Numbered from the stretch's first letter, positions 462 to 23,451 are shown. The stretch: DNA of 64,000 bases from a virus (IMGVR_UViG_3300029305_005387); one strand, 5' to 3'. Numbers and translations: made by a program. Notes: a model not told the origin generated them from the letters alone.

Positions 462-1771
462 TTTTGTTTAGAACATTTCTTCAGAACTATTTGGTGTGAT
501 GATTTCATATACTGACCAGACTCTGCCATTATAAAATGATACGCATATGCAATACGGTAAGTAAATGAACCGTATTCTCGTTGTTTAGAGGCTTCTTCGA
601 ATACTAATTTGTATGTTTTATTTAAAGTGAATGCATTTATATCTAAATTTTCTCCACTGATATAAATTACACATTCATTTTCTTCCATACGAGCTTGTAA
701 AATAGATGGTGTATACTTATTGTCATCTTTACGTGTATAACGAATATACTCATTTCGTTGATTCATAAAAGACTGATCAGCAGAAGCTGTGTCAATAGTA
801 ATATCATCAGTAATAACTACTTTAGCTTCACTACCCATTTCTGCATTTTTAGAAATAGATGGTTTTTGTGGACTAACATTTTCTTCAGGTATATCAATAT
901 AGAAAACTTTTTCTTCTGGTTTACGTACCATACCATTACCTGGTGTAGCTTTATCACGCACTGGAATAAGGAAAGTTGTTTCAGTCCACTCATCTTTTTC
1001 TTTAGCAGTAACTTTACCATTGGTATTGATGATATAAAGTTTATTCAAATCATAAAATATTGAAGCTCCAAACTTATATAGTCCATAATATTGATCTAAG
1101 TATATCAATCCTTTATATGCAGGATTAGATGGAACTAATAATTCTTGATATACCTCGTCATTTTCAATTGGACTCATTAAAACTTTTTTATGTCCAGTTT
1201 CTGTAAGTAATTCACCTACAATATCTTGAAGTGGTGCAGAAGTAAATACTTTATTAAAAGTTTTATTTGAAGCATTTAATATTTTTGGATTGAATAGATA
1301 TATATCAAAAGCCTCTTGAGATGTGAAATAATCTTCTCCTTCGAGATCATTAGAATTATATTCAGTACCAGTATCCATTTCCTCAGTTTGTTCCATAGAC
1401 TTTGTGTCAATAGACTCATCGTCATCATTTAAATAGATACTAAATTCTATGTTCCAAACCTCTTCTGGTCCTGTTATAATGGTCTCAGCTTCTCTGTCAA
1501 GACCAAGTTTATCTAACGCAAATTTTACAGTGATTTCTCTTTTATTTTTGATGACCCACAATTTATGTTTAGTATCCATACGTAGTTTGACCTTTAATAT
1601 GGATCTAATATTAAATTCGAAATCATCGAGTTTTTCAATTGATAAAATATTAGTGAAATCTAATTCAAATTTTTCAGTACCTTTAGCAAGTATTAACATT
1701 GGTACATTATATTTACAAAGAAATACAGAGTCTTCTTTTTCATTAACTAATTCTTTTATAGCCATAAACAA
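458..1771 (-). CDS. Hypothetical protein, possibly baseplate hub/tail component
   Basis: 437-aa ORF with GGAGG RBS; function inferred only from context. Confidence 0.35.
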   Translation of the reverse strand: MFMAIKELVNEKEDSVFLCKYNVPMLILAKGTEKFELDFTNILSIEKLDDFEFNIRSILKVKLRMDTKHKLWVIKNKREITVKFALDKLGLDREAETIITGPEEVWNIEFSIYLNDDDESIDTKSMEQTEEMDTGTEYNSNDLEGEDYFTSQEAFDIYLFNPKILNASNKTFNKVFTSAPLQDIVGELLTETGHKKVLMSPIENDEVYQELLVPSNPAYKGLIYLDQYYGLYKFGASIFYDLNKLYIINTNGKVTAKEKDEWTETTFLIPVRDKATPGNGMVRKPEEKVFYIDIPEENVSPQKPSISKNAEMGSEAKVVITDDITIDTASADQSFMNQRNEYIRYTRKDDNKYTPSILQARMEENECVIYISGENLDINAFTLNKTYKLVFEEASKQREYGSFTYRIAYAYHFIMAESGQYMKSSHQIVLKKCSKQN

Positions 1772-1856
1772 TAAACCTCCTTTAAATTAGGGGATAAATA
1801 ATACTATTGATTAACTTAAGTTAAATATAAAGTAACATAGAAAGGAATGAGATAAA

Positions 1857-2807
1857 ATGTCTAAATTAATTCGAATGAAAGATAAAGTATCTACAATCGA
1901 TGACAAGCAAATTGGCGGATTACGTGGTGAAGTTATTTTTGGTATCGGACGTCATGATGTTCATTATACTGATCCATATGGTAACCCAGCAGTGAGATCA
2001 GAATTTGAAAAGGAACTATTTAGAAGTGAAAATATTGTTCCTATTGGGGGTTATCAATTTGCCTTCGATAAACTGTTCAATATTGGATTAGATCAGAATA
2101 CTACTTTACGAGTAGGAGATCTCAATGATGAAGCTCCTCAAATGAAAATTGGTGTTCCAAGAGGTAGATATAAATCTATCCACTACAATGCTGAAACTAA
2201 TATTGGGGGAACAGAAAATCTTCCAAAAAACGGTGGAATTAACATTTCTGCGATGAATTTTGTATTTGGTTTCATGATTGGTGACGGTGGATGTAGAGAA
2301 GACAATATCACTCCTATTGCTCCTGATTATAAAAATAGATCTTTGTATAGACCTATTCCATTTAGAATGAGCAATGATGGTTATCCATTTCCAAGAGGTA
2401 AATATTTTGGCAAATCAGATCTTTATAGTAATAACTCAAATATTATCACTTCATATTATGTAAAGAAATTTGATAATCCAGATCCTCATATTGTTCATGT
2501 TTGGGTTACTAATCGTAATGGTGAAATGGAAATTGTTGATGATACAGTATTTTCCTCTACATCTAGTGCAGCGATTGAATCATATGTAGAAATGAATTTT
2601 TCTATTGATGAAAATGATTGTAGAGGTTTCTTTACCACTACAGATAGTACTCCTAGAGTAAGTGAATTGGCTCTTGTATCTGGTTGGTACAACTCAGAAG
2701 AAGATGATTATGAATCATTAAGAATTTTTACTAAATATACTCGTCCAGTTATTGCATTAGCTGAAGGAGATTCAATTGAAGGTATTTATCGTCTTTATGC
2801 AAGATAA
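1857..2807 (+). CDS. Putative virion/baseplate structural protein
   Basis: 316-aa ORF with RBS; NIVPIGG...IGDGG...ELALVSG pattern reminiscent of baseplate/tail-fibre attachment proteins. Confidence 0.4.
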   Translation: MSKLIRMKDKVSTIDDKQIGGLRGEVIFGIGRHDVHYTDPYGNPAVRSEFEKELFRSENIVPIGGYQFAFDKLFNIGLDQNTTLRVGDLNDEAPQMKIGVPRGRYKSIHYNAETNIGGTENLPKNGGINISAMNFVFGFMIGDGGCREDNITPIAPDYKNRSLYRPIPFRMSNDGYPFPRGKYFGKSDLYSNNSNIITSYYVKKFDNPDPHIVHVWVTNRNGEMEIVDDTVFSSTSSAAIESYVEMNFSIDENDCRGFFTTTDSTPRVSELALVSGWYNSEEDDYESLRIFTKYTRPVIALAEGDSIEGIYRLYAR

Positions 2808-2810
2808 TAT

Positions 2811-2843
2811 AAAGGAATGGGGCTGTTTTAGCCCCATTCCTTT
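2811..2843 (+). terminator. Intrinsic terminator hairpin
   Basis: aaaggaatggggct-gtttt-agccccattccttt right after the stop codon. Confidence 0.75.
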
Positions 2844-2930
2844 TGTCATTTATTCAATAAAAAGTGGTTAACGTTTGAATAAAGGAATATCCTGATTGTT
2901 ACAAAAATAAAGAAAAGGAGATGAGAAGAT

Positions 2931-3548
2931 ATGACACGTCCAAAAAATAAATCGTTTATAAATATTGAAACGATTCTAATTTTATCAATTGCAATCTGTA
3001 TCATATTCCTCAATAGTTACACTACTACTAAAATTGCTCAATTAGAACAAGCAGGTACTGAAGCAATGTTCATTAAAGAGGGTCTTGAATTCCCAGAAAG
3101 TCAAGAACTCGAAAGTGAAATTATTAAATACCGACCTGATGGGTGTAAAATGATTGAAATGTATAATGATGAATTTGAATTAATGTTTGCAATTCAATTT
3201 GATCAAGGTTATCATGAACATGACACTGATATTACACAATACTCAGAAATGATTGAGATTCTAAGTAGTAACAAAGAGGGTCAAACATCAATTAACCATG
3301 ATGATTATGAAGAAGAAGTTTATTTTCAATGGGTGACAAATGATGTCGGAGAAGATAGACTTGTAATTGTCTATAGTACGAAAGATAATGTAGAAAACAT
3401 ATGGGTATTTTCACTAGTATGTTATCTAGTACTTATTCTGGTATTTGCATTACTAATTAGACTACATCTGAAAGAATACAATGCCAAAATTAATCACTAT
3501 AAACAAATATCTAGCAATGCTATAGATGAGGTTAATAGAAAACATTAA
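2931..3548 (+). CDS. Two-TM membrane protein with extracytoplasmic Cache/PAS-like domain
   Basis: Hydrophobic segments at ~aa 10-28 and ~157-177 flank a soluble domain ending in YFQWV...RLVIVYS. Confidence 0.55.
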   Translation: MTRPKNKSFINIETILILSIAICIIFLNSYTTTKIAQLEQAGTEAMFIKEGLEFPESQELESEIIKYRPDGCKMIEMYNDEFELMFAIQFDQGYHEHDTDITQYSEMIEILSSNKEGQTSINHDDYEEEVYFQWVTNDVGEDRLVIVYSTKDNVENIWVFSLVCYLVLILVFALLIRLHLKEYNAKINHYKQISSNAIDEVNRKH

Positions 3549-7431: not shown

Positions 7432-9453
7432 ATGTCAGATAATACAAACCTAATGCGTGAACTTTATATCCTTGAGGATGAAAACAATCCTTATGGGTCT
7501 AGATCTAAAGGTATATGGCCACCTACTATATTAGATCAGGTATATGATAACTTATCTCCTACAAATAAAACACTGAGAACTATTTTAGAAGAATTAAGAC
7601 ATGATATTCTTACTGGGGGAATTGGCAATATTACATTTCCAGTCACAACTGTTAATGGAATGAATGGAGATGTAATTATTAATGCGAAACATTTAGGTTT
7701 AGAAAATGTTGATAATACATCTGATAATGAAAAACCATTATCAAAACCTCAACGTCTTGCAGTGATGGAACTTCTAAAAGGATTCAAATATGAAGTAGAT
7801 TTAAGTGATTTATATGACCATATTAGAGACTCAAATAATCCTCATGGAATAACTTTTGAACACATTAATCGAAATAATGAGATTGGAAATTATATCTCTC
7901 AATATATCTTGAAACATGAAAATGATCAAACATCTCATCAAGATATTAGAAATTTAATCAAGGATATTGATTATTCTGTTAAAAATATTCACAATGATGT
8001 TGAAGAAAGAATTTCTATTGCTCTTAGAATTTTGGATCAACATTATGCAGATGAAGGAGCACATTCACCTTTATTTGATAAAAAAGAAGATGTATTGAAT
8101 AAAGTATTTGATTTTGAAAATGTTGATCATAAACGATATCCATCCGTAAGAGCAGTTGTAGATTATGTAACATCCGTAGCTAATACTTTAAGATCTGAGA
8201 TCACTACAATAGAAAACTGGATAGATGATATTATCGTTATTAGATCAAGAGATGATTTGCCATCTGCAAGTATTAAGACTTACCGTAAAGCATATTTCAT
8301 TCGTAGAGGATTAAATAATAATGATGAGATTGCCATTTGTCGAATAAATCCTGATAATACAACTTATTCTTGGGATATTTCTACATTTGATACGTATGCA
8401 AAATTTGATGAATCTTATTTTATTAACACAGATGATGGTTTATCTCTAAATACAACTAATATAGCTGAAACATTAATCAATGAAGGAAATATGAATAAAG
8501 GTATTTCTGAAATTGTTAATTCAGTATTATTTGAATCCACTGCAATAATCAATTTCAATATTAATGAACTAGGAGAATTAACTGTTGAATATGATGAAAG
8601 ATATCCTGATCCTATTCTATATATTGATGAAAATGGTGAATTGATACTAGAAGCAGATGATGGAACTCTTTCTGAATTCTTGGTTGAAAATTGTAACTTC
8701 GAAATTGTAAATGGACGATTAATTCTTACAACTGAAGATATTGATATTGTAAATATTGGACATGGAAAGATTGCTAATTACTATACGAAGGATGAAATCG
8801 ATGAATTTTCATTCATTAATAGTATTCAGATATTATCAGGAACAGAGAATGGAACCATTCGATATTATATAAATAACGATATATCTACAATGTCTCCTGA
8901 TATTAAAGTTACTGGTATTAATAAACTCGCATTTCTTGAAAAGGTAACTGAAAATGAAATAGAAGACAACTCAGTCCATTCTCAACACATTCTAAACAGG
9001 GCAATTCAATATCGTCATATGGGAGAAAAGGCAGTATCTGCTGAAAATATGAGAGGATCTTACAATACTATATTTGGCAATGTTGAAGATTCTCAAGGTA
9101 ACACGGTTAGAGAGATTCCTTTGACATATCTTGTAGAAGTTTTTCAGCCATATATTAAAGATTTTATTGCTCAGTATTTAACATCTTCTCCTGAAATGAA
9201 GTCAATACTAAAGGATATCTATGAAGAAATAATTGCTGAGGAAATCATGAGTGAAGCTCCTATTACATTAACCATTCAAGATGGTTCATTAATAGCAACT
9301 TATGATGAGACTCAGTATAGTGAACCTGATATTGAAATTGATAAAGACGGGTATTTGATTTTAAATTCATCAGATACTGCAATTGATCAATACTTGGAAA
9401 GTATTTTCTTTAATATAGTTGATTCAACGTTAGTAATGACCGTAAATGAATAA
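7432..9453 (+). CDS. Tail fibre-like virion protein
   Basis: VTTVNG, LGLENVDNTSD.KP, H..D.NNPH motifs typical of phage fibres; shares N-terminus and motifs with 18934-23451. Confidence 0.7.
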   Translation: MSDNTNLMRELYILEDENNPYGSRSKGIWPPTILDQVYDNLSPTNKTLRTILEELRHDILTGGIGNITFPVTTVNGMNGDVIINAKHLGLENVDNTSDNEKPLSKPQRLAVMELLKGFKYEVDLSDLYDHIRDSNNPHGITFEHINRNNEIGNYISQYILKHENDQTSHQDIRNLIKDIDYSVKNIHNDVEERISIALRILDQHYADEGAHSPLFDKKEDVLNKVFDFENVDHKRYPSVRAVVDYVTSVANTLRSEITTIENWIDDIIVIRSRDDLPSASIKTYRKAYFIRRGLNNNDEIAICRINPDNTTYSWDISTFDTYAKFDESYFINTDDGLSLNTTNIAETLINEGNMNKGISEIVNSVLFESTAIINFNINELGELTVEYDERYPDPILYIDENGELILEADDGTLSEFLVENCNFEIVNGRLILTTEDIDIVNIGHGKIANYYTKDEIDEFSFINSIQILSGTENGTIRYYINNDISTMSPDIKVTGINKLAFLEKVTENEIEDNSVHSQHILNRAIQYRHMGEKAVSAENMRGSYNTIFGNVEDSQGNTVREIPLTYLVEVFQPYIKDFIAQYLTSSPEMKSILKDIYEEIIAEEIMSEAPITLTIQDGSLIATYDETQYSEPDIEIDKDGYLILNSSDTAIDQYLESIFFNIVDSTLVMTVNE

Positions 9454-9455
9454 TG

Positions 9456-9488
9456 GTATGGAGAGGCTTATCATAAGCCTCTCCATAC
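9456..9488 (+). terminator. Hairpin terminator
   Basis: gtatggagaggctta-tca-taagcctctccatac. Confidence 0.7.
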
Positions 9489-9530
9489 TTTACTATTTTA
9501 TTAATTATTCTCATTTTGGAGGGATTAAAT

Positions 9531-11837
9531 ATGCAACATTTTAAGTTAGAAAAAGATTGTGTATTGTACAAAACACAATTTGAAAAGTATATGCTTGATA
9601 TATTTGGAGACCACCGTCTGGATAGATATTCTTTAGATTTAGATGGAATTTTATTTAGAATTAAATATATGACTAAGCATAAAAGAGATCTTGATAAGAT
9701 TCCAGAATTACAAGAGAAATTTACTAATATTGCAATCCAGTTAAGAAAATGCTTTGGTGAATTTCTCTTTAACTTCTTAGCTCAGATTATAACAATTCCT
9801 GAACCATTTAAACTTGACAATATTGTTGATATTCTTGCTCATGATGTGAAGATGGATCCGAATTATGTAAAGTTTAAAATGATATTAATTTCAGATAGTA
9901 AAGAATATATTGAATATGTAGATTCAGCTTTTCCAGATAATGAAGTATTTAATATGTTTCCAAACGAATACTTTAGATTTTATACTGATTCATACAATGA
10001 TGGAATTGCTAAAGCATATCCAGAACTATTTGAAAATAAACATCAGGACAAGATTGGTGTTGGAGCTGATGGAGATGTATTCTGCCACAACTTTACTTTT
10101 CAGACAGGAGAACGTTGTTCACTGAACTGTACGTATTGTGTTCCAGATGGTACCAAAGTTACATTACCAGATTATTCAATGAAAAATATTGAAGATATCC
10201 AAGTAGGTGATAAAGTATTGGCAGTAGATGAACATCATCCTGTTGGTAAAGAACATACATTACGAGAATCTGAAGTTACACATGTTTTCAAAAGGGAAAC
10301 AAATGGTTATTTTAAGATATCTCATAGAGCTTTAAAAGAACCTATTTGTATTACTGGTGAGCATCCTGTAAAAACAGAGAGACGTGGATGGATACCTGTA
10401 AATATGTTAAGATCAACGGATAAAATTTTGATATCTTCAATAGATCCATATGATTTTTATTCTACGAATTTTAAAAATCCATCATTTATAATGAATAAAA
10501 TCTCAAATTCATATCATTACTATAAAACGCAATACATTGGTGGATTTAAACTTGAAAATATTAAAGAAAAATGTACAGTGTATAATTTGGAAACAACTGA
10601 ACATACTTACGCTATTGGAAGATTATTAGTTCATAATTGTTATCAGTTTAATAAATCAGAAATGAGAATGAGTTTTGAAACTGCAAAGAAGTTTATTGAT
10701 AATTTATTGACTGATCAATATGGATATATTAATCAATATAATTCTCCTGCCATCATTATGGAGTTTATTGGTGGCGAACCTTTGCTTGAAATTAATCTTA
10801 CAAGAAAGATTTATGAATATTTTCTTGATAGATGTTACGAATTAAATCATCCTTGGTTTACTCTTCATAGACTTTCAATATGTTCTAATGGTATGCAATA
10901 TTTCGATAAAGAAGTTCAAGATTTTTTTAAAGAATATTCTTCACAAATTTCATTCAATATTTCCATTGATGGAAATAAAGAATTACATGATGCTTGTAGA
11001 GTTCAACCAAATGGAGAAGGAAGTTATGATATTGATATATGTGCACTGAATCATTATAATAAACATTTTACACCAGAGAGAAATTCTAAGATGACTTTGG
11101 CTCCATCTAATATTTCATATCTATTTGATTCAGTCGTAAACTTTATTAACAACGGAATGACAGTTATTAATATTAACTGCATTTTCGAAGAGGGTTGGAA
11201 CCAAGAGACTGCACGAATTGAATATTATCAGTTAAAGAAATTAGCTGAGTATATATTAGAGAATGATTTAGATCATCTTTATATAGCCATATTTAATGAA
11301 CGTCAAGAAGACGTGATGCCTAAAGAACAGGATGGATCATTTTGTGGAGGTGCCGGTTCCATGCTTGCTATGAGACCTAATGGACAGTTTTATCCATGTA
11401 TTCGTTACATGCCATCTTCTGTTGGTAATAATGTAAAAGATCTTTGTATTGGAACTGTCGATACAGGTATTCATGGACGAGAAGAAGGATCTGATATCAT
11501 TAGAATGTTAGATAGAATTACACGACGTGCACAAAACAATGACATCTGTTATGAATGTCCAATTTCAAATGATTGTGCTTCTTGTTTAGCATTAGGACAT
11601 ACAGTATTTGGTACTCCTAATAAGAGAACAAACTTCATCTGTATCCAAATGATTGCTGAGGCGTTAGCTAATGTATTTTACTGGAATGCATTATTAATCA
11701 AACATCCAGAATATAATCTCGATGTAAGAAAAAATAATGTTCCAGATAAATGGGCTCTCTTAGTAATAGATGAAGAAGAACTTGATTATTTGAAAAAACT
11801 TGAAGCATATGCAATGATCATAAAGATGGAAAGATAA
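9531..11837 (+). CDS. Radical SAM/SPASM peptide maturase (CXXX-repeat target family-like), intein-containing
   Basis: After intein removal CSLNCTYC (CxxxCxxC); FIGGEPLL; ISIDG..ELHD; SPASM CGGAG...YPC...CYECPISNDCASC...C; ATG 9531 after GGAGGG. Confidence 0.88.
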   Translation: MQHFKLEKDCVLYKTQFEKYMLDIFGDHRLDRYSLDLDGILFRIKYMTKHKRDLDKIPELQEKFTNIAIQLRKCFGEFLFNFLAQIITIPEPFKLDNIVDILAHDVKMDPNYVKFKMILISDSKEYIEYVDSAFPDNEVFNMFPNEYFRFYTDSYNDGIAKAYPELFENKHQDKIGVGADGDVFCHNFTFQTGERCSLNCTYCVPDGTKVTLPDYSMKNIEDIQVGDKVLAVDEHHPVGKEHTLRESEVTHVFKRETNGYFKISHRALKEPICITGEHPVKTERRGWIPVNMLRSTDKILISSIDPYDFYSTNFKNPSFIMNKISNSYHYYKTQYIGGFKLENIKEKCTVYNLETTEHTYAIGRLLVHNCYQFNKSEMRMSFETAKKFIDNLLTDQYGYINQYNSPAIIMEFIGGEPLLEINLTRKIYEYFLDRCYELNHPWFTLHRLSICSNGMQYFDKEVQDFFKEYSSQISFNISIDGNKELHDACRVQPNGEGSYDIDICALNHYNKHFTPERNSKMTLAPSNISYLFDSVVNFINNGMTVININCIFEEGWNQETARIEYYQLKKLAEYILENDLDHLYIAIFNERQEDVMPKEQDGSFCGGAGSMLAMRPNGQFYPCIRYMPSSVGNNVKDLCIGTVDTGIHGREEGSDIIRMLDRITRRAQNNDICYECPISNDCASCLALGHTVFGTPNKRTNFICIQMIAEALANVFYWNALLIKHPEYNLDVRKNNVPDKWALLVIDEEELDYLKKLEAYAMIIKMER
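10137..10637 (+). mobile_element. Mini-intein (167 aa, no homing endonuclease) inside the radical SAM CxxxCxxC motif
   Basis: Block A CVPDGTKV...IEDIQVGDKV; block B ITGEHPV; blocks F/G VYNLETTEHTY...LVHN followed by +1 Cys. Confidence 0.92.
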
Positions 11838-11843
11838 AATGAT

Positions 11844-11873
11844 ACACAGGAGAGGGATTTCCCTCTCCTGTGT
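11844..11873. terminator. Bidirectional hairpin terminator
   Basis: acacaggagaggga-tt-tccctctcctgtgt between convergent genes. Confidence 0.7.
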
Positions 11874-11894
11874 TTATACACTAACTTATGATAA

Positions 11895-12422
11895 TTAAGC
11901 AGTTGTATCAGGTTCAGTTGTTTCTGTACCATCTTCTGCAGGTTCTTCAGATTCATTAGAATCTTCTGCACCTGCATCGGTACCAGCGTCTTCATCTTCT
12001 GCATCCTTAGTATAAGTTACAGTAACTTCAACGCCTTCAGCTACCATATCACCAGTCAATAAAGTCTGATCAGCAGTATAACCTACGAAACTAGGAGGTG
12101 CATACGTGTATTCACCGCCAACATTGAACATTCTTTCTACAGGATCAGGAACTGTTAGATCTTCAGGACCTTCGAATGTTACTTTAAGAGCTGCACGAGC
12201 TGCAACTACATCGATGTCATTACCAGGACCTTCTTTTTCTTCAGATGCTTCAGCTTCAGGATCTTCCATTTTAGCTACAAGCTCAGGAACAATCTGTTTG
12301 AATTCCTCACGAGTGATCTGAATTCCAGGTACACTGTTGAAAAGATAATGCAAAGCATTAAACAATTCATTTGCTGCACCGGCAGTATCACCAGCAGCAA
12401 TACATTCATTAATTTTAGCCAT
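11895..12422 (-). CDS. Acidic protein with MucBP-like domain
   Basis: GGEYTYAPPSFVGYT...GDMVAEGVEVTVTYTK resembles MucBP; acidic tail; ATG 12422 after AAAGGAG. Confidence 0.55.
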   Translation of the reverse strand: MAKINECIAAGDTAGAANELFNALHYLFNSVPGIQITREEFKQIVPELVAKMEDPEAEASEEKEGPGNDIDVVAARAALKVTFEGPEDLTVPDPVERMFNVGGEYTYAPPSFVGYTADQTLLTGDMVAEGVEVTVTYTKDAEDEDAGTDAGAEDSNESEEPAEDGTETTEPDTTA

Positions 12423-12509
12423 ATTAAAGACTCCTTTCATGATTTACTTTTGTTTTATCCAGTTTATTTCCCAGGATTAATTATCTGTAATTAGAAAATT
12501 ATGAATGAA

Positions 12510-12523
12510 AACGACTATTTAAT
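12510..12523 (+). promoter_or_regulatory. Candidate late promoter upstream of the Cys-rich gene
   Basis: AACGACTATTTAAT, 12 of 14 identical to the capsid-gene motif. Confidence 0.5.
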
Positions 12524-12551
12524 TATTGATTTCTATCGTGGAGGTGTTAAT

Positions 12552-14801
12552 ATGAATAAAGATCTTTATTCAAATCAAGAATTCACTGAATTAAAACACC
12601 GATTAAATCAGGAAATACAGAGAAGAAGTACATTTTCTTGGTGGGATCCGCTAACAACACCATCTGTTGGAGAAGATAAATCATCTCCAATGTCATTACC
12701 TGATATCGGTCAACGAGTTTCAGTTGATGATAAAACATATACAATCAATAATCCTTCTGAGGGATCTATTGAAAGGACTAAAAATATTCATTATCAAAAT
12801 CATGGAGATAGTCCATCAGGTGATGATAGTGAATTTATTTCAACAGTTCCAAATACATCTGCAGCTAAAATGGATGCAGATGAAATGAGAAACTTTTTGG
12901 TTGGTTTATCTAAAATAAAAGATATCAATCTTTTTTATGGTAGAGATGAAATCCCAGGTCTTGCTTATAGAGATCCATCTGGAATAGAAGAAGTACTAAC
13001 AAGTGCTGAAAAAGATAAATTACATGAATATATTGTAGGTGAATATTCAAAGAATGATCCTAATAATGGAGCTAACGATCATTTAGACGGAAATTATCCT
13101 AGTAATATTCACGAAGTTCATTACGATATTGAAAATGGAATTGCTGTAATGAAATCCGGAGAATATGATGGAGAAGAATTAAACACCCATGATGGTTTAG
13201 GTCCTAATAATTTCTTTGATGATTATGGGGCAGAACCAGGAGATGGTGATTTTCATCCTTATAACAGAGGATATACTCCACAAAGTAGACGAGATTGGAA
13301 AATACATAATAATCAACGTAAAACAGAAAAGGTTTATGTTACTGAAGGAGGAATACCAACTTCTTCTTTTGGACCAAATCCTAGAAATCCAGTCCAAGGT
13401 AAAGAATATAAATCTCGTCCAGTATTTAAAGGATCTCCAAGTACTTGTCAGGTTGCTTGTACTGGTCTATGTAGCGTTACTTGTGATGATCAATGTTCAG
13501 AATCTTGTTCTTCAACATGTTGGAGTCGATGTGGTAATGCTTGTACTTCTTCATGTGGTAATGCTTGCACAGGTTGTAGTACTTTATGTTATACATCTTG
13601 CAAAACTAAATGTGAAAACATTTCTGGATATGCTTGTGTAACTGCTGGAGCAAAAGCTATTAAAATAACAACATCTGGTGGCACTAATGGTGTACCTGCA
13701 AAAAATGAAATCCAAGCAGAAACATATTCATGTCAAGGATGTTCATATAGTTGTCAATTTTATCCTAATAAAAAGACAACTTGTTGGGATGCTGGATGTA
13801 TGGGTAATTGTTTTATCTCTTGTAACACAGCATGTTCAACTGCCTGTACTGGTGGTTGTATTAATAATACAGCTGAAGAAGGTACTTCATATAAAACTGG
13901 TAAAGGCAGAGGATGTTCTTCTGGATGTACATTAAACTGTATTGGAAATTGTTCTGGGACATGTGAAGGACAATGTGTGACAACTTGTTGGCATGCATGT
14001 AAAGAAACATGTACTGACAATTGTACATTCGAATGTTCTACAAATTGTGGAAGTGGTTGTGCTAGTGGATGTAAAGATGGTTGTACAGGATGTACAGGAA
14101 CTTGTGAATCTTATTGTGAAGGACAAACCGATTCAATAGGATGTACAGGTTGTAGCACAAAAGGCGGTTGTACATCTACTTGTCAGCATGGCTGTAATAA
14201 AAATTGTGTTGGTATAGGATGTAGATCAATTTGTGGTATTGAAGCTGCTGGAGCTTGTGAAGCTAATTGTAGAATCAATTGTATGAGTTCTAGTTGTTCA
14301 GCTATGTGTTCTAATCAATGTTCAGATCAATGTACAACATGTGTCAATACCTGTGGATTTGGATGTGGGTATTGTTCTTCCGTATGTTCTTCTGGTTGTG
14401 ATGCTGCTTGTGAAATCACGTGTAGTGAGAAGTGTGAACATTCTTGTGAAAATAATTGTGTTCAGTCTTGTAGTGAAGAATGTGGCGGATGTTCTTCATT
14501 ATGCTTCTCATGTGTTGGAATGTGTATTGGAGTTTGTAGTGTACATTGTGAAAATGGATGTACCAGTTGTTCAGTAATGTGCGGATGGTGGTGTGATTCT
14601 TCATGTAATCAACAATGCTTTGCAAATTGTGACACTTTCTGTATATCTGATTGCTCTGGTTCTTGTATAACATTCTTAATGAGTAAAGCTAATACTACCA
14701 TTGGACCTGAAAATAACCCTACAGCTGAAGGATATAAGTGTCCTCATCCTTCTAATAGAGAAGAGGAACGTGAATCATTTATTATTAGGAAGGATGAATA
14801 A
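12552..14801 (+). CDS. Large Cys-rich CXXX-repeat protein, putative radical SAM substrate
   Basis: ~300 Cys-free N-terminal residues, then ~89 Cys (hand count) mostly at CxxxC with interspersed CxxC spacing; ATG 12552 after GGAGGT. Confidence 0.8.
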   Translation: MNKDLYSNQEFTELKHRLNQEIQRRSTFSWWDPLTTPSVGEDKSSPMSLPDIGQRVSVDDKTYTINNPSEGSIERTKNIHYQNHGDSPSGDDSEFISTVPNTSAAKMDADEMRNFLVGLSKIKDINLFYGRDEIPGLAYRDPSGIEEVLTSAEKDKLHEYIVGEYSKNDPNNGANDHLDGNYPSNIHEVHYDIENGIAVMKSGEYDGEELNTHDGLGPNNFFDDYGAEPGDGDFHPYNRGYTPQSRRDWKIHNNQRKTEKVYVTEGGIPTSSFGPNPRNPVQGKEYKSRPVFKGSPSTCQVACTGLCSVTCDDQCSESCSSTCWSRCGNACTSSCGNACTGCSTLCYTSCKTKCENISGYACVTAGAKAIKITTSGGTNGVPAKNEIQAETYSCQGCSYSCQFYPNKKTTCWDAGCMGNCFISCNTACSTACTGGCINNTAEEGTSYKTGKGRGCSSGCTLNCIGNCSGTCEGQCVTTCWHACKETCTDNCTFECSTNCGSGCASGCKDGCTGCTGTCESYCEGQTDSIGCTGCSTKGGCTSTCQHGCNKNCVGIGCRSICGIEAAGACEANCRINCMSSSCSAMCSNQCSDQCTTCVNTCGFGCGYCSSVCSSGCDAACEITCSEKCEHSCENNCVQSCSEECGGCSSLCFSCVGMCIGVCSVHCENGCTSCSVMCGWWCDSSCNQQCFANCDTFCISDCSGSCITFLMSKANTTIGPENNPTAEGYKCPHPSNREEERESFIIRKDE
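13446..14666 (+). repeat. CXXX protein-level repeat region
   Basis: 12-nt periodic TGT codons, e.g. CQVACTGLCSVTCDDQCSESCSSTC. Confidence 0.9.
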
Positions 14802-14803
14802 AT

Positions 14804-15070
14804 ATGGGAAGAATAAGTGAAGTAAAATATATACAAGTTGATCCAATTGATTATGATGTACATGAAGCTGCTCAACACTATTTTCATTCTAATGTAATTC
14901 CGATTCATGAAATGTTTTATGTTGGATATGAAGAATATGAATTAAAACAAAATTCTATTCGTAATAACATCACTAGAGATAATAGGGACGATAGTCTAAA
15001 ATTGAATACGTCTACATTTGGGATATCGATAAAAAATAATCAAGTCATTCTGGTAATCGATAAAGCATAA
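14804..15070 (+). CDS. Hypothetical protein, likely co-transcribed with the Cys-rich gene
   Basis: 88-aa ORF starting 2 nt after the upstream stop. Confidence 0.6.
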   Translation: MGRISEVKYIQVDPIDYDVHEAAQHYFHSNVIPIHEMFYVGYEEYELKQNSIRNNITRDNRDDSLKLNTSTFGISIKNNQVILVIDKA

Positions 15071-15073
15071 CAT

Positions 15074-15105
15074 TTAAGAGAGGAGCTATATAGCTCCTCT
15101 CTTAA
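15074..15105. terminator. Perfect 32-bp palindrome, bidirectional terminator
   Basis: ttaagagaggagctat|atagctcctctcttaa. Confidence 0.7.
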
Positions 15106-15111
15106 TCATCT

Positions 15112-15411
15112 TTACATCATTTCATATACTTGAATTGAATTTCCGGAAACTTCATATCCATCATAATTCCAGACATATTGAGAAAATCTAAAATGTTCAG
15201 GAACAAACTCATTTGTGATTCTGTATTTGATAGCTTCAATTTTAGAAGTAATCGGAATAAGAGATTCTTCAAGCTTCTCAAATTTATTAGGATCATCTGC
15301 TACCTGTGTTAATACTCTCGTACGGATTGTTTCCTTTGTTAGTAATTCAGATAATTCTCTAGCAAGTTCATCAGGAATTGTAAAATTTCCTCGTAATACT
15401 TGATTGATCAT
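15112..15411 (-). CDS. Small helical protein, possible CXXX-repeat modification system accessory protein
   Basis: 99 aa, helical hairpin then aromatic YVWNYDGYE tail; size and layout recall TIGR04116-type proteins (by eye only). Confidence 0.4.
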   Translation of the reverse strand: MINQVLRGNFTIPDELARELSELLTKETIRTRVLTQVADDPNKFEKLEESLIPITSKIEAIKYRITNEFVPEHFRFSQYVWNYDGYEVSGNSIQVYEMM

Positions 15412-18933: not shown

Positions 18934-21900
18934 TTATGAATAACGGAACCAGATATCACCATTCTGTCCATCGGTAGGTCTTCTATAAGAAATAATAGTA
19001 TTTCTAATAGCTCTTCTTTCAAGATCAGAATGCTTTTTAACTGTTGTATATGCAGGTAATTCAATTTCTTGAACAAGTTTATCTCCATTGATGGATTCAT
19101 CTTGCATTTTACTCATAGAAATAGATTTATCTGCAATCTTTTCTTCTGTTACAGATTCATTTCTAATTTTACTATTATCGATAGCATTATCTAGAATATG
19201 AACTGTATTGATCATTTCTTCATTAGCAAGTTTCTGAGCACCGATTGAAAAATCTTGAATCTTATTACCTTTGATAGAATTCATTTGAATCTTATCATCA
19301 TTAATACTTTCATTTTCAATCATTTCAGAATTAACTTTAACCCAATCAACTTTACCAGTTTCTTTATTCATAGAAATAACTGTATTTGGATCTTCAGAAT
19401 CCTTGAATAAATCAGGGGTTAAAGTTTCTTTTTCAACCATTTCTCCAGTTATATTTGTCCATACTGGGTCAGTATTCGCATCAGTAACTGCAAGTACTTT
19501 ATTAGGTTGCTCACTAGTGAATAATTTCTTACCTGTAACTGCACGATCGTTGATATAATCTGTAATTACAGAATCTTCTTTTAGTATTGCACCCTTTTGT
19601 TCATTATATCCATATCCAGTGATGTCAATCATTGGTTCTGATTCAGGTTCAATTTCTCCAGTAATGATACCACGAATTCTAGATACATCAATAGGAGCAA
19701 TCTCGTTTTCTTTTACTTCAAAGGAACTAGAAGCATATGTAACTTCTAATGTTCCGTCAACCATGTCACTGATATCTTTATTAGAAATACTTAGTACTTC
19801 ATCACCATAGTCAGTGTACATAGATGGATTATTTGTAACTACTTGATCATTATTAAGTATAGCATACATTGTATCTTGTGAAATAGGAATAATATAAGAG
19901 TAATCAACTCCAGAACCATTTCCACATCCACAATTACAAGACGAACCAGAATTTCCTTCAAGAGTAAGATTAATACTACCATCTTCAGTATCTTCAACAG
20001 AAACTTCACCATCGATAATAGCACGAATTCTTTCTGCAGAAATTGGTTCTATAACAATATCACCAATTTGTGTACTTTCAGAAGATTCCTCAACAATTAA
20101 TTCCTCATCAACGATAGCTTCGAGAATAGATTCATCAATACGATCAAATTCAACGTCATTATACGTAAATGATTCATTTGAACTTGCTTCAGTTTCACCT
20201 GCAAGTATACTTAGAATGGTTTCATCACTGATGTCATCTATGGTGATATTTCTAGTAACACTAGAACTTGAATCATTACCAGAATCTCCAGTACCTGGTG
20301 AACCACCGCTATTCAATCCACCATAACAAGGAATTCTTGATTGTAGATTAGAATTGAATTTTGCCAAATGCTCGATAATTCTATCAATAACCCACTGACA
20401 GTCCGGTATTAATTCACCATCACCATTATCATCACTTGCTTGTGGTGCTGGACGAACTTCTACTTTCGGTGAACCAAGTAATTCAATACTTCTTACCAGC
20501 TTATCTCTGGTAATAGAAGCATTTTCAATCATGTCCTCGACTACTTTCATATATTGAGGAGCTGAACCGGCTTCACTTACTCCAAGAATTACATTAGATA
20601 CTTCCGAAGATTTAAGTTTAGATATATCTATTAATCCATCTGGTAAAATTACTTCTCCTTCATGAGAATAATTACCCATCATAGATTTAATAGTTTTTCG
20701 CACCCAAGCAGTATCAGGAATAGAATTATCATTTGAATATTCGGCTGGTCTATCGGCAATTCGTGTATTACCATAAAATAGTAAATCGTGTTTTAATTTA
20801 GAATGACCAATAGATCCATCTTCAATAAACTCTTCCGTGATCTGAATAAAATCAGGTACATCTCCAATATTAACAGAACCTAATACTCTGAAAGGTCTTT
20901 CACTTCTGAATATTTTTTCACCAGTAACAGACATATCTTCGATCATATCTGTTTGAATTTGCATCCATTTTATTTGATCACTATCTTTTCCGATACCAAT
21001 AATTCTACTCTTTATATCAGGAATTGCTAATTTGCTTATTTCTATTGAATGATCGGCAATATGTTCATTAATAATAACCTCTGGTAGAATATGCGTAGAA
21101 TCAATTATCTGCTTTGCTAAATATTTAGAGGTGATAGATTCATCTTTAATGTTAGAAATGTCAAACTTAACATCTTCTCCTAACATTTTAGAAGTAATCT
21201 TCATATATTTAGCAGGTGTATTAGCATCTTCAACAGCAAGTACCATATCAGAGATACTACTACTAAATATCTTCTCACCAGTAACGGAATAATCCTCGAT
21301 GAAATCTGTAGTAAGTTTCATCCATTTTGGAGTTCTATTAATTAAATCAAAACCCAAAATAGATTTATTGATATCAGGAATTGCTAGTTTTTCTTCAGTT
21401 ATGGATTCATCAATAATAGCATCAGTTCCAACAGAAGCTGTAGCCATCATTTCTCTTGTGATCTGAGAATATTGAGGGTGTCCACCATCTGGACCAACAG
21501 CTAGTACTCTATTAGGGATTTCAGATTTAAAAATCTTTTCACTAGTTACAGAAGATTCTTCAAGAGCTAATGTAGAAACAGAATCTTTATCGAGAACTCT
21601 TTTAGATACTGATCTATTCGCTAATTTTTCTTCAGTAACTGCATTAGATTTAATATTGTGGGAATCTACAGATTCATCATCCAACATATCTGAATTAATT
21701 CTGCCCCAGTAAGCATCTCCATTAACTTCAGTAACTATTAAAGCTCTATTTTTCAATGGAGAAGAAAAAAGATGTTCTCCGCTTACTGAATGCGGAGCAA
21801 TATTTTTTCCAGTAATAGTAATATTGCTGAATAACTTACGAACCCATGATGTATCAGGAATACTGTTATCATCAGATTCTAATACAGGAGATTCATTTAA

Positions 21901-23451
21901 TTTAACATTACGCAATACTGCATATTGAGCAATCTTATCTCCAGTAACTGCATTTTCTCTGATGTTATTTGTATCAACTGCAGTATCTGCAATTTTTTCA
22001 TGAGTTACTGATTTATCTGATAATTTGGATGTAGATATAGCATTATCAGCAATCATCTCATTAATTACTTGCATCCACTCTGCATCTGATCCAGCTTCTT
22101 TTACAGCTAAAATCCTATTAGATATTTCAGATGTAAATAATACTCTACCTGTAAGTGTATGAGTTTCAATATTAGAATCTTTAATAGTTCCATCTGCAAT
22201 CTTTTCTGTTGTAATAGATCCATCAGCATAGTTGATGGTAGTAATTGTTAAATCAGCTATCTTATTACCAGTAATAGATTTATCGGCATACACAGAATTA
22301 CCTAAAGAATTATCTAATATCTCATTAGAAGTAATGCTCTTTGGAATAATTGAAGCACTTATAAGATTTGCATCTTTATTTACTTCAATTTTGATATGGG
22401 TTCCAATTGTACCTATATATTTCTGAACTAGATTCTGAATACTGATACGCTTAGAAGATCCATTTAATTCAGTAATAACCAATTCATTAGTTTCCTGATC
22501 TACAGTAATTTCATCAACTAAACCATCAGTAACAATTGGAATAGATACGACTGAAGTATCATTAAAAGATATCAATAATCTACCTTTTGTTTGATCATAA
22601 TTGATATCAATTACATATTTCAAGTCACCATATAAACCACTAATTCCAGAAATTAATGCATTTAAATTATCTAATGCATTCTTAGTTGCTCTAGAAATAG
22701 GTTTATCAATATCGGAAGTATTATCTACATTACTTAACCCAATCTGATCTTTAGTTACTTCATGTGGATTATTTTTATCAAGAGTATGATTTTCAAAAGT
22801 AACTAAATCTACTGCACCAATCTGTTTAGCTGTTACATGATGAGGATTTTCATAATCAGATATATGTTTAGTAATATTAACTCCGAATTGAGTAGAATCA
22901 ATTTCTGTTATTATATTAGACATTTCTTTTCTAATATCAGAAATTAATTTTGTTATCGCAGCTTGAGAAACAATACCTGTTTCATCATCGCCTAATTCAT
23001 TATATATTTCTGGCCTACCAACAATTGCAGTCCATAGTAATTTGGTCGTGTCATCACCAGTAGCATTTCCATTATTATCTACAAAGCCATATTTACGAAG
23101 TAATTCACCTACAGCTTTTTCTGTTGGAATTCTATCACTTCGTTGAGAAGCTTCATCGTATGGAATTTTAGTACTAATTTGAATAGATCCAATAGCACCA
23201 GCTGCTCCACCATAAGTTACTAAATTATCAGCTGATTTAGCAGGGATAAGAGGTTGACGTCCATTCAAATCAGAATTAATTTGTTCTAATACTTCTGCTA
23301 ATGTAGGACTATCCTCATCGTACATATCCTGTCGTACAGCTTTAAATACAGTAATAGGAAATGTGTTCTTATAATTTAGATTAGGTGGAGGAGTGGCGTT
23401 GGGATCTATCCACACACGTGATTGAATAATTTCATGTCCTATTAGTCCCAT
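18934..23451 (-). CDS. Long tail fibre protein (1505 aa)
   Basis: NPHxVT..QIG repeats, many I.D.S(I/V)T..K(I/L) repeats, C-terminal PTDGQNGDIWF. Confidence 0.75.
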   Translation of the reverse strand: MGLIGHEIIQSRVWIDPNATPPPNLNYKNTFPITVFKAVRQDMYDEDSPTLAEVLEQINSDLNGRQPLIPAKSADNLVTYGGAAGAIGSIQISTKIPYDEASQRSDRIPTEKAVGELLRKYGFVDNNGNATGDDTTKLLWTAIVGRPEIYNELGDDETGIVSQAAITKLISDIRKEMSNIITEIDSTQFGVNITKHISDYENPHHVTAKQIGAVDLVTFENHTLDKNNPHEVTKDQIGLSNVDNTSDIDKPISRATKNALDNLNALISGISGLYGDLKYVIDINYDQTKGRLLISFNDTSVVSIPIVTDGLVDEITVDQETNELVITELNGSSKRISIQNLVQKYIGTIGTHIKIEVNKDANLISASIIPKSITSNEILDNSLGNSVYADKSITGNKIADLTITTINYADGSITTEKIADGTIKDSNIETHTLTGRVLFTSEISNRILAVKEAGSDAEWMQVINEMIADNAISTSKLSDKSVTHEKIADTAVDTNNIRENAVTGDKIAQYAVLRNVKLNESPVLESDDNSIPDTSWVRKLFSNITITGKNIAPHSVSGEHLFSSPLKNRALIVTEVNGDAYWGRINSDMLDDESVDSHNIKSNAVTEEKLANRSVSKRVLDKDSVSTLALEESSVTSEKIFKSEIPNRVLAVGPDGGHPQYSQITREMMATASVGTDAIIDESITEEKLAIPDINKSILGFDLINRTPKWMKLTTDFIEDYSVTGEKIFSSSISDMVLAVEDANTPAKYMKITSKMLGEDVKFDISNIKDESITSKYLAKQIIDSTHILPEVIINEHIADHSIEISKLAIPDIKSRIIGIGKDSDQIKWMQIQTDMIEDMSVTGEKIFRSERPFRVLGSVNIGDVPDFIQITEEFIEDGSIGHSKLKHDLLFYGNTRIADRPAEYSNDNSIPDTAWVRKTIKSMMGNYSHEGEVILPDGLIDISKLKSSEVSNVILGVSEAGSAPQYMKVVEDMIENASITRDKLVRSIELLGSPKVEVRPAPQASDDNGDGELIPDCQWVIDRIIEHLAKFNSNLQSRIPCYGGLNSGGSPGTGDSGNDSSSSVTRNITIDDISDETILSILAGETEASSNESFTYNDVEFDRIDESILEAIVDEELIVEESSESTQIGDIVIEPISAERIRAIIDGEVSVEDTEDGSINLTLEGNSGSSCNCGCGNGSGVDYSYIIPISQDTMYAILNNDQVVTNNPSMYTDYGDEVLSISNKDISDMVDGTLEVTYASSSFEVKENEIAPIDVSRIRGIITGEIEPESEPMIDITGYGYNEQKGAILKEDSVITDYINDRAVTGKKLFTSEQPNKVLAVTDANTDPVWTNITGEMVEKETLTPDLFKDSEDPNTVISMNKETGKVDWVKVNSEMIENESINDDKIQMNSIKGNKIQDFSIGAQKLANEEMINTVHILDNAIDNSKIRNESVTEEKIADKSISMSKMQDESINGDKLVQEIELPAYTTVKKHSDLERRAIRNTIISYRRPTDGQNGDIWFRYS

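Follow-up and report, generated by a model that had tools for sequence, protein, structure and literature searches.

Radical S-adenosylmethionine (rSAM) systems of the CXXX-repeat type combine a maturase carrying a SPASM domain (TIGR04115), a Cys-rich target (TIGR04114/PF27846), an accessory protein (TIGR04116) and a second maturase (TIGR04119). They have been catalogued for more than a decade as an orphan peptide pathway lacking a known product, and no experimental study of them was found in the literature. The subject here is a 64,000-nucleotide stretch of viral DNA (IMGVR_UViG_3300029305_005387, hereafter the window; G+C ~31%) which encodes an rSAM/SPASM enzyme next to a protein with 89 Cys. 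It is part of a 124.6-kb IMG/VR virus record whose completeness is 46% according to CheckV. Related complete records measure 270-289 kb and the window phage is therefore a jumbo phage. On sequence grounds its system is a divergent phage branch of the catalogued CXXX system and not a new kind. The best overall explanation of the locus, to which we give a probability of about one half, is a divergent jumbo-phage CXXX-repeat rSAM maturation system with a cross-linked product in the fibre or host-recognition apparatus.

The window and the catalogued CXXX-repeat system have in common their best enzyme family, the target repeat with the same Ser, Thr, Gly and Asn residues between Cys, and a small helical accessory related by profile comparison. 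However, the window enzyme lies below the family cut-off and carries an N-terminal extension of 190 amino acids (aa) and an intein. Its target is a signal-free, two-domain protein of 749 aa, whereas those of the catalogued system are peptides of 55-175 aa with a twin-arginine translocation (Tat) or general secretory (Sec) leader. The window genes are in separate transcription units or, in relatives, dispersed, and no TIGR04119 partner was found. Small gut-phage and prophage cassettes (contig MT835573; Desnuesiella massiliensis, Neglectibacter timonensis) also lie at the end of tail-fibre genes and share with the window the N-terminal target helix as well as the enzyme and accessory families. 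They differ in their targets (170-480 aa with a ~100-aa N-domain), in an accessory gene placed directly before the rSAM gene and in enzymes without the N-terminal extension, and the jumbo clade forms a separate long-stemmed branch (100% support).

Three better characterised systems are relevant. In Methanococcus voltae, the SPASM enzyme CrpC installs ranthionine cross-links in the whole Cys-rich protein CrpA, as shown by mass spectrometry (PMC13692751). This resembles the window in that an rSAM/SPASM enzyme is paired with a large Cys-rich protein made of repeats, whose N-terminus holds a conserved region for recognition, and in that AlphaFold confidence is low in the Cys region (PMC13692751). 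However, CrpC belongs to another rSAM family (TIGR04463, on which the window enzyme reaches 34 bits for a cut-off of 525) and is archaeal and cellular, not viral, while CrpA carries 17- or 34-residue repeats with CxxQ/D motifs rather than CXXX. PapB (ranthipeptides) and CteB (SCIFF) have SPASM domains with two auxiliary clusters, resembling that of the window enzyme; PapB provides the next-best hidden Markov model (HMM; 128-141 bits) and CteB (5WHY) the best solved structure. The window nevertheless scores far under their cut-offs, and their substrates are short peptides with 1-6 cross-links at defined acceptors. Finally, the HK97 capsid hardens the phage particle by autocatalytic isopeptide cross-links. 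Here, in contrast, a separate radical enzyme would install the links, on a tail-side protein. What the window adds to this set is the largest and best-conserved target of those compared here, with 88 ladder Cys, an enzyme whose cluster motif is interrupted by an intein and which has a new N-terminal domain, and trans-encoded parts.

The enzyme and its probable target

An initial annotation of the window had proposed three open reading frames (ORFs), for an rSAM/SPASM enzyme, a giant CXXX-repeat protein and a 99-aa accessory, at 9531-11837, 12552-14801 and 15112-15411. All three are present and the 99-aa ORF is conserved. The enzyme precursor (768 aa; 9531-11837, plus strand) comprises an N-terminal extension, an N-extein, a mini-intein and a C-extein, and its start ATG at 9531 agrees with the N-termini of orthologs (MxxFKLEKD). 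It matches TIGR04115 ('radical SAM peptide maturase, CXXX-repeat target family') with 317 bits over model positions 14-359, or 320 bits in a six-frame search; positions 1-13 are unmatched because the 167-aa mini-intein lies inside the cluster motif. TIGR04115 is the best family by ~190 bits, followed by PapB (NF047865; 128 bits, and 141 for the intein-free jumbo ortholog L004, far under the cut-off of 340), CcpM (80), QhpD (69), the SCIFF maturase (63) and the anaerobic sulfatase-maturating enzymes (anSME, TIGR03942; 44 bits, 44-53 with L004, for a cut-off of 349). The enzyme thus groups with CXXX maturases and not with anSME, as had been proposed. Its membership of TIGR04115 is borne out in part: this is the best family by far, but 317 bits is below the curated cut-off of 350. 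Since L004, which has no intein, still scores 329, the jumbo enzymes represent a divergent branch.

The first two cluster Cys (C196 and C200 of CxxxCxxC; 10116-10136, plus strand) are located at the end of the N-extein. The third, C370, is the +1 residue of the mini-intein (167 aa, C203...H368-N369; 10137-10637, plus strand), which has no endonuclease domain. All features of a class 1 mini-intein are present: the C203-VPDG... start, a block B TGEHPV (TxxH), the ...LLVHN369 end and the +1 C370. Matches to the Hint and intein Pfam profiles are sub-threshold. The intein-free orthologs L004 and L005 read CSLNCTY|CYQFNK where the window reads CSLNCTY[C...VHN]CYQFNK. They lack exactly these 167 residues, so that the insertion boundary is exact. 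Once the intein is removed, CxxxCxxC is therefore whole again and the +1 Cys supplies its third ligand, in accord with the 'spliced rSAM' of the initial annotation. The rSAM ortholog of L011 (2991-6380) has two inteins, one at the same site but larger and of LAGLIDADG type, the other inside the SPASM region. Hint/LAGLIDADG intein domains are also found in Cys-rich orthologs of ~1250 aa (P0031, P0047, P0048, P0052, P0078, P0092, P0116, P0117) and in that of G008 (120570-123779). Inteins have therefore inserted into enzyme and substrate alike in the jumbo clade.

The C-extein (10638-11834, plus strand) contains the radical SAM core and a SPASM domain with seven Cys (C605, C623, C673, C676, C682, C685, C704). 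These and the spliced CxxxCxxC motif (C196, C200, C370) are invariant in both enzyme alignments (A4, A10). An AlphaFold2 (AF2) model of L004 has an overall pLDDT (predicted local distance difference test) of 88 and a predicted template modelling score of 0.86. Its nearest solved structures are CteB (5WHY, E 7e-16), ChlB, anSME (4K36, E 4e-11) and SuiB; judged from this model, the likeness to anSME is as expected for any SPASM enzyme. The N-terminal extension (~190 aa, ~189 in the window; 9531-10097, plus strand) is specific to the jumbo clade, where it is kept in 7 orthologs, and lacking in small-phage and bacterial enzymes. It is modelled confidently in L004 (pLDDT ~90), and comparison of its profile with PDB sequences gave nothing meaningful. 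The possibility that it is a fused accessory was rejected, as hhalign gave at most 3% against a TIGR04116 member, the 94-aa and 202-aa proteins of L001 and the phage accessory family described below.

The target (749 aa, 89 Cys; 12552-14801, plus strand) matches the earlier description of a ~750-aa protein with ~89 Cys after a Cys-free stretch of ~300 aa. Its N-domain (residues 1-298; 12552-13445, plus strand) has no Cys. The first Cys is residue 299 and opens the CXXX-repeat region (residues 299-705; 13446-14666, plus strand), which holds 88 Cys in five blocks and where the dense run ends at residue 705. Successive Cys are separated by 4 residues in 68 cases and by 3 in 9. When this region was shuffled 2000 times, the number of CxxxC motifs was 18.1 +/- 3.4 and never exceeded 30, compared with 68 in the real sequence. 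The protein has a Cys content of 11.9%, the median for long ORFs in this genome being 1.1%, and no second ORF of such Cys content was found in the 124.6-kb record.

A search of 5.8 billion proteins returned 172 homologs, which measure 750-1260 aa and in many cases lie on long contigs, reaching 298 kb. PF27846, named 'tSAM_targ_Cxxx_rpt' in the Atlas, is precomputed on the target and on all 172 of them, and the clusters carrying it are mostly viral. In a local NCBIfam scan TIGR04114 was matched by small-phage targets but not by the window target, and the proposed identification as a CXXX target is thus upheld by PF27846 and not by TIGR04114. Of the 89 Cys, 88 reach a conservation of at least 95% in an alignment of 63 sequences (45-67% identity). 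The triplets of residues that separate the Cys vary as much as the N-domain. Their composition, mostly Ser, Thr, Gly and Asn, is alike whether the target comes from a jumbo phage or a small phage or is of the bacterial peptide type. Homologs range from 685 to 1072 aa, yet their Cys count remains constant at 86-89. Some homologs have an extra C-terminal 140-250 aa which is absent from the window protein. The latter has neither a Tat nor a Sec signal; the bacterial targets measure 55-175 aa and several have Tat leaders.

In AF2 models built with the alignment, the N-domain (residues 1-298) reaches a pLDDT of 70-86. The Cys region is unfolded (pLDDT 20-30) with short helices bearing Cys stripes. 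No structural relative of the N-domain was identified (best Z 3.2 in a wide VIA search; nothing in PDB or BFVD with Foldseek). An exhaustive phmmer search with this domain returned only 22 cluster representatives, nearly all matching from the first residue of the protein, as in jumbo Cys-rich proteins. Its beginning is shared more widely. A helix motif LYSNxEFTxLKxRLNxEIxRR (12564-12635, plus strand) is common to small-phage Cys-rich proteins, and the first ~30 residues align with the start of the ~100-aa small-phage N-domain. With hhalign, the small-phage N-domains (A9) match the jumbo N-domain with 87% probability (E 3.8e-6; score 43, where none of 40 shuffles exceeded 19). This N-terminal helix is a candidate recognition element.

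Enzyme-target coupling and a candidate accessory protein

Enzyme and target co-occur in every jumbo relative examined, irrespective of distance: in L009 the Cys gene is 4 kb from the rSAM gene on the opposite strand, and in the complete genomes G001 and G006 the two are 63 and ~90 kb apart, both being kept. None of the three genomes with a completeness score of 100% (G001, G003, G006) has lost either gene. A pattern scan of IMG/VR identified at least 500 viral relatives of the enzyme, and a scan of one genome per prokaryotic species at least 525; the best 80 loci of each were checked for CXXX-rich ORFs within 7 kb. Such an ORF was present in 73 of the 80 viral loci, usually just upstream and usually where the tail-fibre genes end, and in 67 of the 80 from bacterial genomes. 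The co-occurrence and synteny with fibre genes expected from the initial annotation are therefore observed, in every jumbo relative examined and in hundreds of other phages beside fibre genes. A coincidental neighbourhood, in which the rSAM enzyme has another substrate and the Cys-rich protein folds alone, could draw only on the distance between the two genes in G001 and G006. It is very improbable given the proportions above, an enzyme family defined by its CXXX target and the retention of both genes in the complete genomes. Co-occurrence together with family membership indicates that the two very probably form a dedicated enzyme-substrate pair.

The phage setting itself, which the initial annotation regarded as exceptional, turns out to be common: most of the sampled diversity of the family is phage- or prophage-borne. 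The best prokaryotic relatives come from Oscillospiraceae, Lachnospiraceae and other Clostridia, in settings that read as prophage tail modules. Small-phage and prophage enzymes exceed the TIGR04115 cut-off with 471-652 bits, and the catalogued 'bacterial' family therefore already holds phage members. In a maximum-likelihood tree the jumbo enzymes form one clade (100% support, long stem) among the small-phage and prophage sequences. The enzymes with short-peptide targets group in a clade of their own; many of these enzymes are fused to TIGR04119. The window thus shows one example of a cassette that recurs in other genomes.

Several variants were observed in passing. The viral contigs L035 (86-6238) and L036 (582-6246), of 128-141 kb, each have one rSAM gene with 5-6 tandem CXXX-rich ORFs upstream of it that reach 968 aa and 104 Cys. 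Salmonella phage SEGD1 (L182, 3350-3754) has an unannotated 134-aa ORF with 20 Cys (16 CxxxC) overlapping the annotated gp169; two annotated radical SAM genes lie ~1.3 kb downstream of this ORF, and a putative virion structural protein is encoded nearby. A related cassette occurs in Brevibacillus sp. SYSU BS000544 (L163), with a 321-aa Cys protein downstream of the rSAM gene. Brevibacillus is usually aerobic, which is unexpected for an oxygen-sensitive enzyme. L002 (MT837480, 6.8 kb), filed as 'Bacteriophage sp.', appears bacterial rather than viral: it encodes a Tat-signal CXXX peptide, TIGR04115, TIGR04119 and TIGR04116 proteins, then ORFs that look TatA- and TatC-like by eye. No paper on a phage CXXX system was found in the literature.

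The 99-aa protein (15112-15411, minus strand) is a candidate CXXX accessory. The TIGR04116 HMM does not match it at E up to 1, and a phage accessory family profile found no match in the genome record. This phage family (A8) was built from 56 phage loci in which an ORF of 89-137 aa lies directly 5' of the rSAM gene. It aligns end to end with a bona fide TIGR04116 protein in a profile comparison (71%, E 3.7e-5), and gave nothing meaningful against PDB sequences. The family of the 99-aa protein (A2) in turn aligns with A8 from end to end (hhalign 81%, E 1.2e-5, 85 columns), with a score of 33.9 where 80 reversed or column-shuffled controls did not exceed 21.9 and 12%. Two other small proteins of the locus reached 3% in the same comparison. 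The match being well above the shuffles, the 99-aa protein is regarded as a probable distant homolog of the accessory encoded apart from the enzyme, and by profile it is probably a distant member of the CXXX accessory family. The accessory role initially suggested for it is thus unsupported by TIGR04116, and its link to the system is a distant one through the phage family.

The 99-aa gene directly follows a virion structural gene in 13 of 16 related loci and stays there when the rSAM gene moves, and it had been considered to belong only with this structural gene. This view was revised after the profile match and the finding that in G006 the two are 14 kb apart. In phylogenetic profiling of the 99-aa gene, the relatives found all come from this one clade and all have the CXXX system. 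In G001 (L020, 427-1776) the 99-aa module forms the C-terminus of a 449-aa protein without Pfam match, whose first 350 aa contain beta-rich module repeats by eye. Complex prediction of the 99-aa protein with target residues 1-100 (score 0.02, mark 0.32) was counted neither way on binding.

Immediately downstream of the Cys gene, an 88-aa ORF (14804-15070, plus strand) without family match is always found 3' of this gene in L004, L005, L006 and G001, where the rSAM gene is 63 kb off. It was rejected as the accessory (hhalign at most 3.5%). From its constant position it may be a second candidate partner or a chaperone. Peptide-type clostridial enzymes have TIGR04119 fused to them. No TIGR04119 partner was found in the 124.6-kb record (46% complete), the sole match being 27 bits to the SPASM region of the rSAM enzyme itself, nor was one seen in the phage cassettes L001, L044, L058, L072, L107 and L111.

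Proposed place and chemistry of the product

Several unrelated types of phage carry the cassette distally, where their tail-fibre genes end. The Desnuesiella massiliensis mt10 prophage is arranged as baseplate, tail fibre, 216-aa Cys protein, 185-aa ORF, 113-aa accessory, rSAM, holin and amidase, and L044 and L072 have a similar layout. In L058 (3744-6194) an 816-aa protein combines an N-terminal 220-aa CXXX region with two ALK/LTK-type glycine-rich domains (PF12810, 326 bits). The preceding gene (762-3437), a paralog, encodes three of these domains but lacks a Cys region. In the T-even gp38 adhesins, the tip that binds the receptor consists of glycine-rich polyproline-II bundles (bioRxiv 10.1101/2023.11.25.568672); the resemblance of the L058 domains to this tip is an analogy of fold class, homology not being shown. 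The Cys protein of L005 has inserted modules matching the L005 ortholog of the fibre-like gene upstream of the window enzyme (E 3.5e-7). Gene context and domain fusions tip the balance towards the Cys-rich protein being part of the virion or fibre, and the recurrence of the enzyme-target pair beside tail-fibre genes, across hundreds of gut-anaerobe phages and prophages, suggests enzymatic cross-linking of a particle protein but falls short of proving it.

The same context can be read differently. The cassette could be cargo, its matured product acting in the infected or lysogenic cell or upon release at lysis and not in the virion, for instance in metal or sulfur handling, in redox buffering or as a large bacteriocin-like factor. 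On this reading the cassette would lie next to fibre genes because accessory genes usually insert there. Its place in temperate relatives is precisely between the tail-fibre and the lysis genes; in the window, terminator-like hairpins set its genes apart as separate units, and in G001 and G006 they are scattered. The Crp genes of M. voltae are tied to growth on pyrite and not to structure, and the bacterial relatives make small exported peptides. However, no complete genome of the jumbo clade, which is probably lytic, lacks the cassette, the target is without an export signal, and CXXX regions are fused to multi-domain glycine-rich proteins and to modules in common with the fibre-like gene. 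The constancy of Cys number (86-89) and positions across 685-1072 aa also fits a structural domain. Overall we consider cargo rather unlikely.

As to the chemistry, we lean slightly towards a thioether, by analogy with the nearest families: thioethers are the product of all better-scoring relatives that have been characterised, and in the case of CrpC they are made on an entire protein. The acceptor positions are not predictable, since the PapB-type CX3D/E pattern is not the rule here. This departure, the close structural matches to anSME (E 4e-11) and the short AF2 helices with Cys stripes, which would suit metal binding too, could instead point to a genuine pair with another outcome: metal or Fe-S binding, later disulfides, formylglycine-like oxidation, epimerisation or C-C bonds. 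Such alternatives seem improbable. The better-scoring characterised families (PapB, QhpD, CcpM, SCIFF maturase) all form thioethers from Cys, the anSME model gives 44-53 bits for a cut-off of 349, and the CrpC precedent is a thioether on a Cys-rich protein.

A more specific scheme can be put forward tentatively, in which phages of strict anaerobes staple dozens of tail-fibre-associated Cys into a poly-thioether by means of an rSAM enzyme, using trans-encoded components, the helix as address, the 99-aa protein as adaptor and the intein as a possible switch. In the best overall explanation given above, protein splicing would remove the mini-intein and rebuild the CxxxCxxC cluster motif. The conserved N-terminal helix of the target would probably bring it to the enzyme, and the 99-aa accessory-like protein would help recognition, possibly by reading this helix. 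The enzyme would then act repeatedly along the 88 periodic Cys, forming links from Cys sulfur to carbon. An otherwise unfoldable Cys/Ser/Thr/Gly-rich region would thereby become a covalently stapled domain, independent of redox state. The protein would be made inside a strict gut anaerobe, whose reducing cytoplasm does not allow disulfides, and the stapled product would most likely serve in the tail-fibre or host-recognition apparatus of the virion.

Several points weigh against a cross-linked virion component. The pure CxxxC ladder has Cys at i+4 and not the Asp/Glu acceptor of the PapB-type CX3D pattern. No characterised member of TIGR04115 was found and the chemistry is therefore extrapolated from families scoring 128 bits or less, the window enzyme itself being under the curated TIGR04115 cut-off. 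The accessory assignment comes from one profile-profile result, for a gene usually located beside an unrelated structural gene. Placement of the Cys-rich protein in the virion is inferred from gene context and domain fusions, and its N-domain has no recognisable fibre fold. Moreover, the slot between tail-fibre and lysis genes is a classic cargo ('moron') site in temperate phages.

If the cross-linked virion component is real, it would be the first one made enzymatically and the first radical-SAM modification of a virus structural protein. It would represent a new way of building phage particles, in which an oxygen-sensitive radical enzyme yields a redox-proof, protease-resistant host-recognition module. 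Such a module would suit viruses assembled in the reducing cytoplasm of an anaerobe and then released into the gut. The CXXX system would shift from a peptide pathway to a mostly phage-borne protein modification. With 88 sites per chain, the target would also offer an extreme case for studying how radical SAM enzymes modify proteins processively. The proposal can already be tested, as related prophages occur in cultured strains.

Locus layout and neighbouring genes

In the jumbo clade (window, L004, L005, L006/L008, L011) the gene order is fibre-like gene, rSAM gene, Cys gene and 88-aa ORF, with the 99-aa gene, the virion structural gene and a FEN-type-like nuclease gene on the opposite strand. 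The fibre-like protein upstream of the enzyme (673 aa; 7432-9453, plus strand) keeps its position across the clade (L004, L005, L006, L011) and has weak matches to tail-fibre and minor-tail PHROG families over residues 39-111 (E 2e-5). The strong fibre gene (1505 aa; 18934-23451; phrog_892, E 1e-33) is 3.5 kb beyond the 99-aa gene, from which it is separated by the virion structural gene, the gene resembling a FEN-type exonuclease by eye, and others. The initial placement of the locus between two tail-fibre genes is therefore only partly accurate: the upstream neighbour has weak fibre matches and the downstream one is at a distance.

Three terminator-like hairpins, given without strand, divide the stretch into separate units. 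One lies between the fibre-like gene and the rSAM gene (9455-9489). Another (11844-11873) is 3' of the rSAM gene and common to a convergent gene for a 181-aa protein, and the third (15074-15105) lies between the 88-aa ORF and the convergent 99-aa gene. Neither megablast of the locus nor tblastn of the target N-domain gave a match among GenBank phages. The Cys-rich gene was detected in animal faeces and gut metagenomes, including goat gut. The 181-aa protein (11895-12440, minus strand), whose gene is divergent from the Cys gene, is acidic and has a borderline MucBP match (22.3 bits for a cut-off of 23). A 96-aa relative occupies the same place beside the Cys gene in G001.

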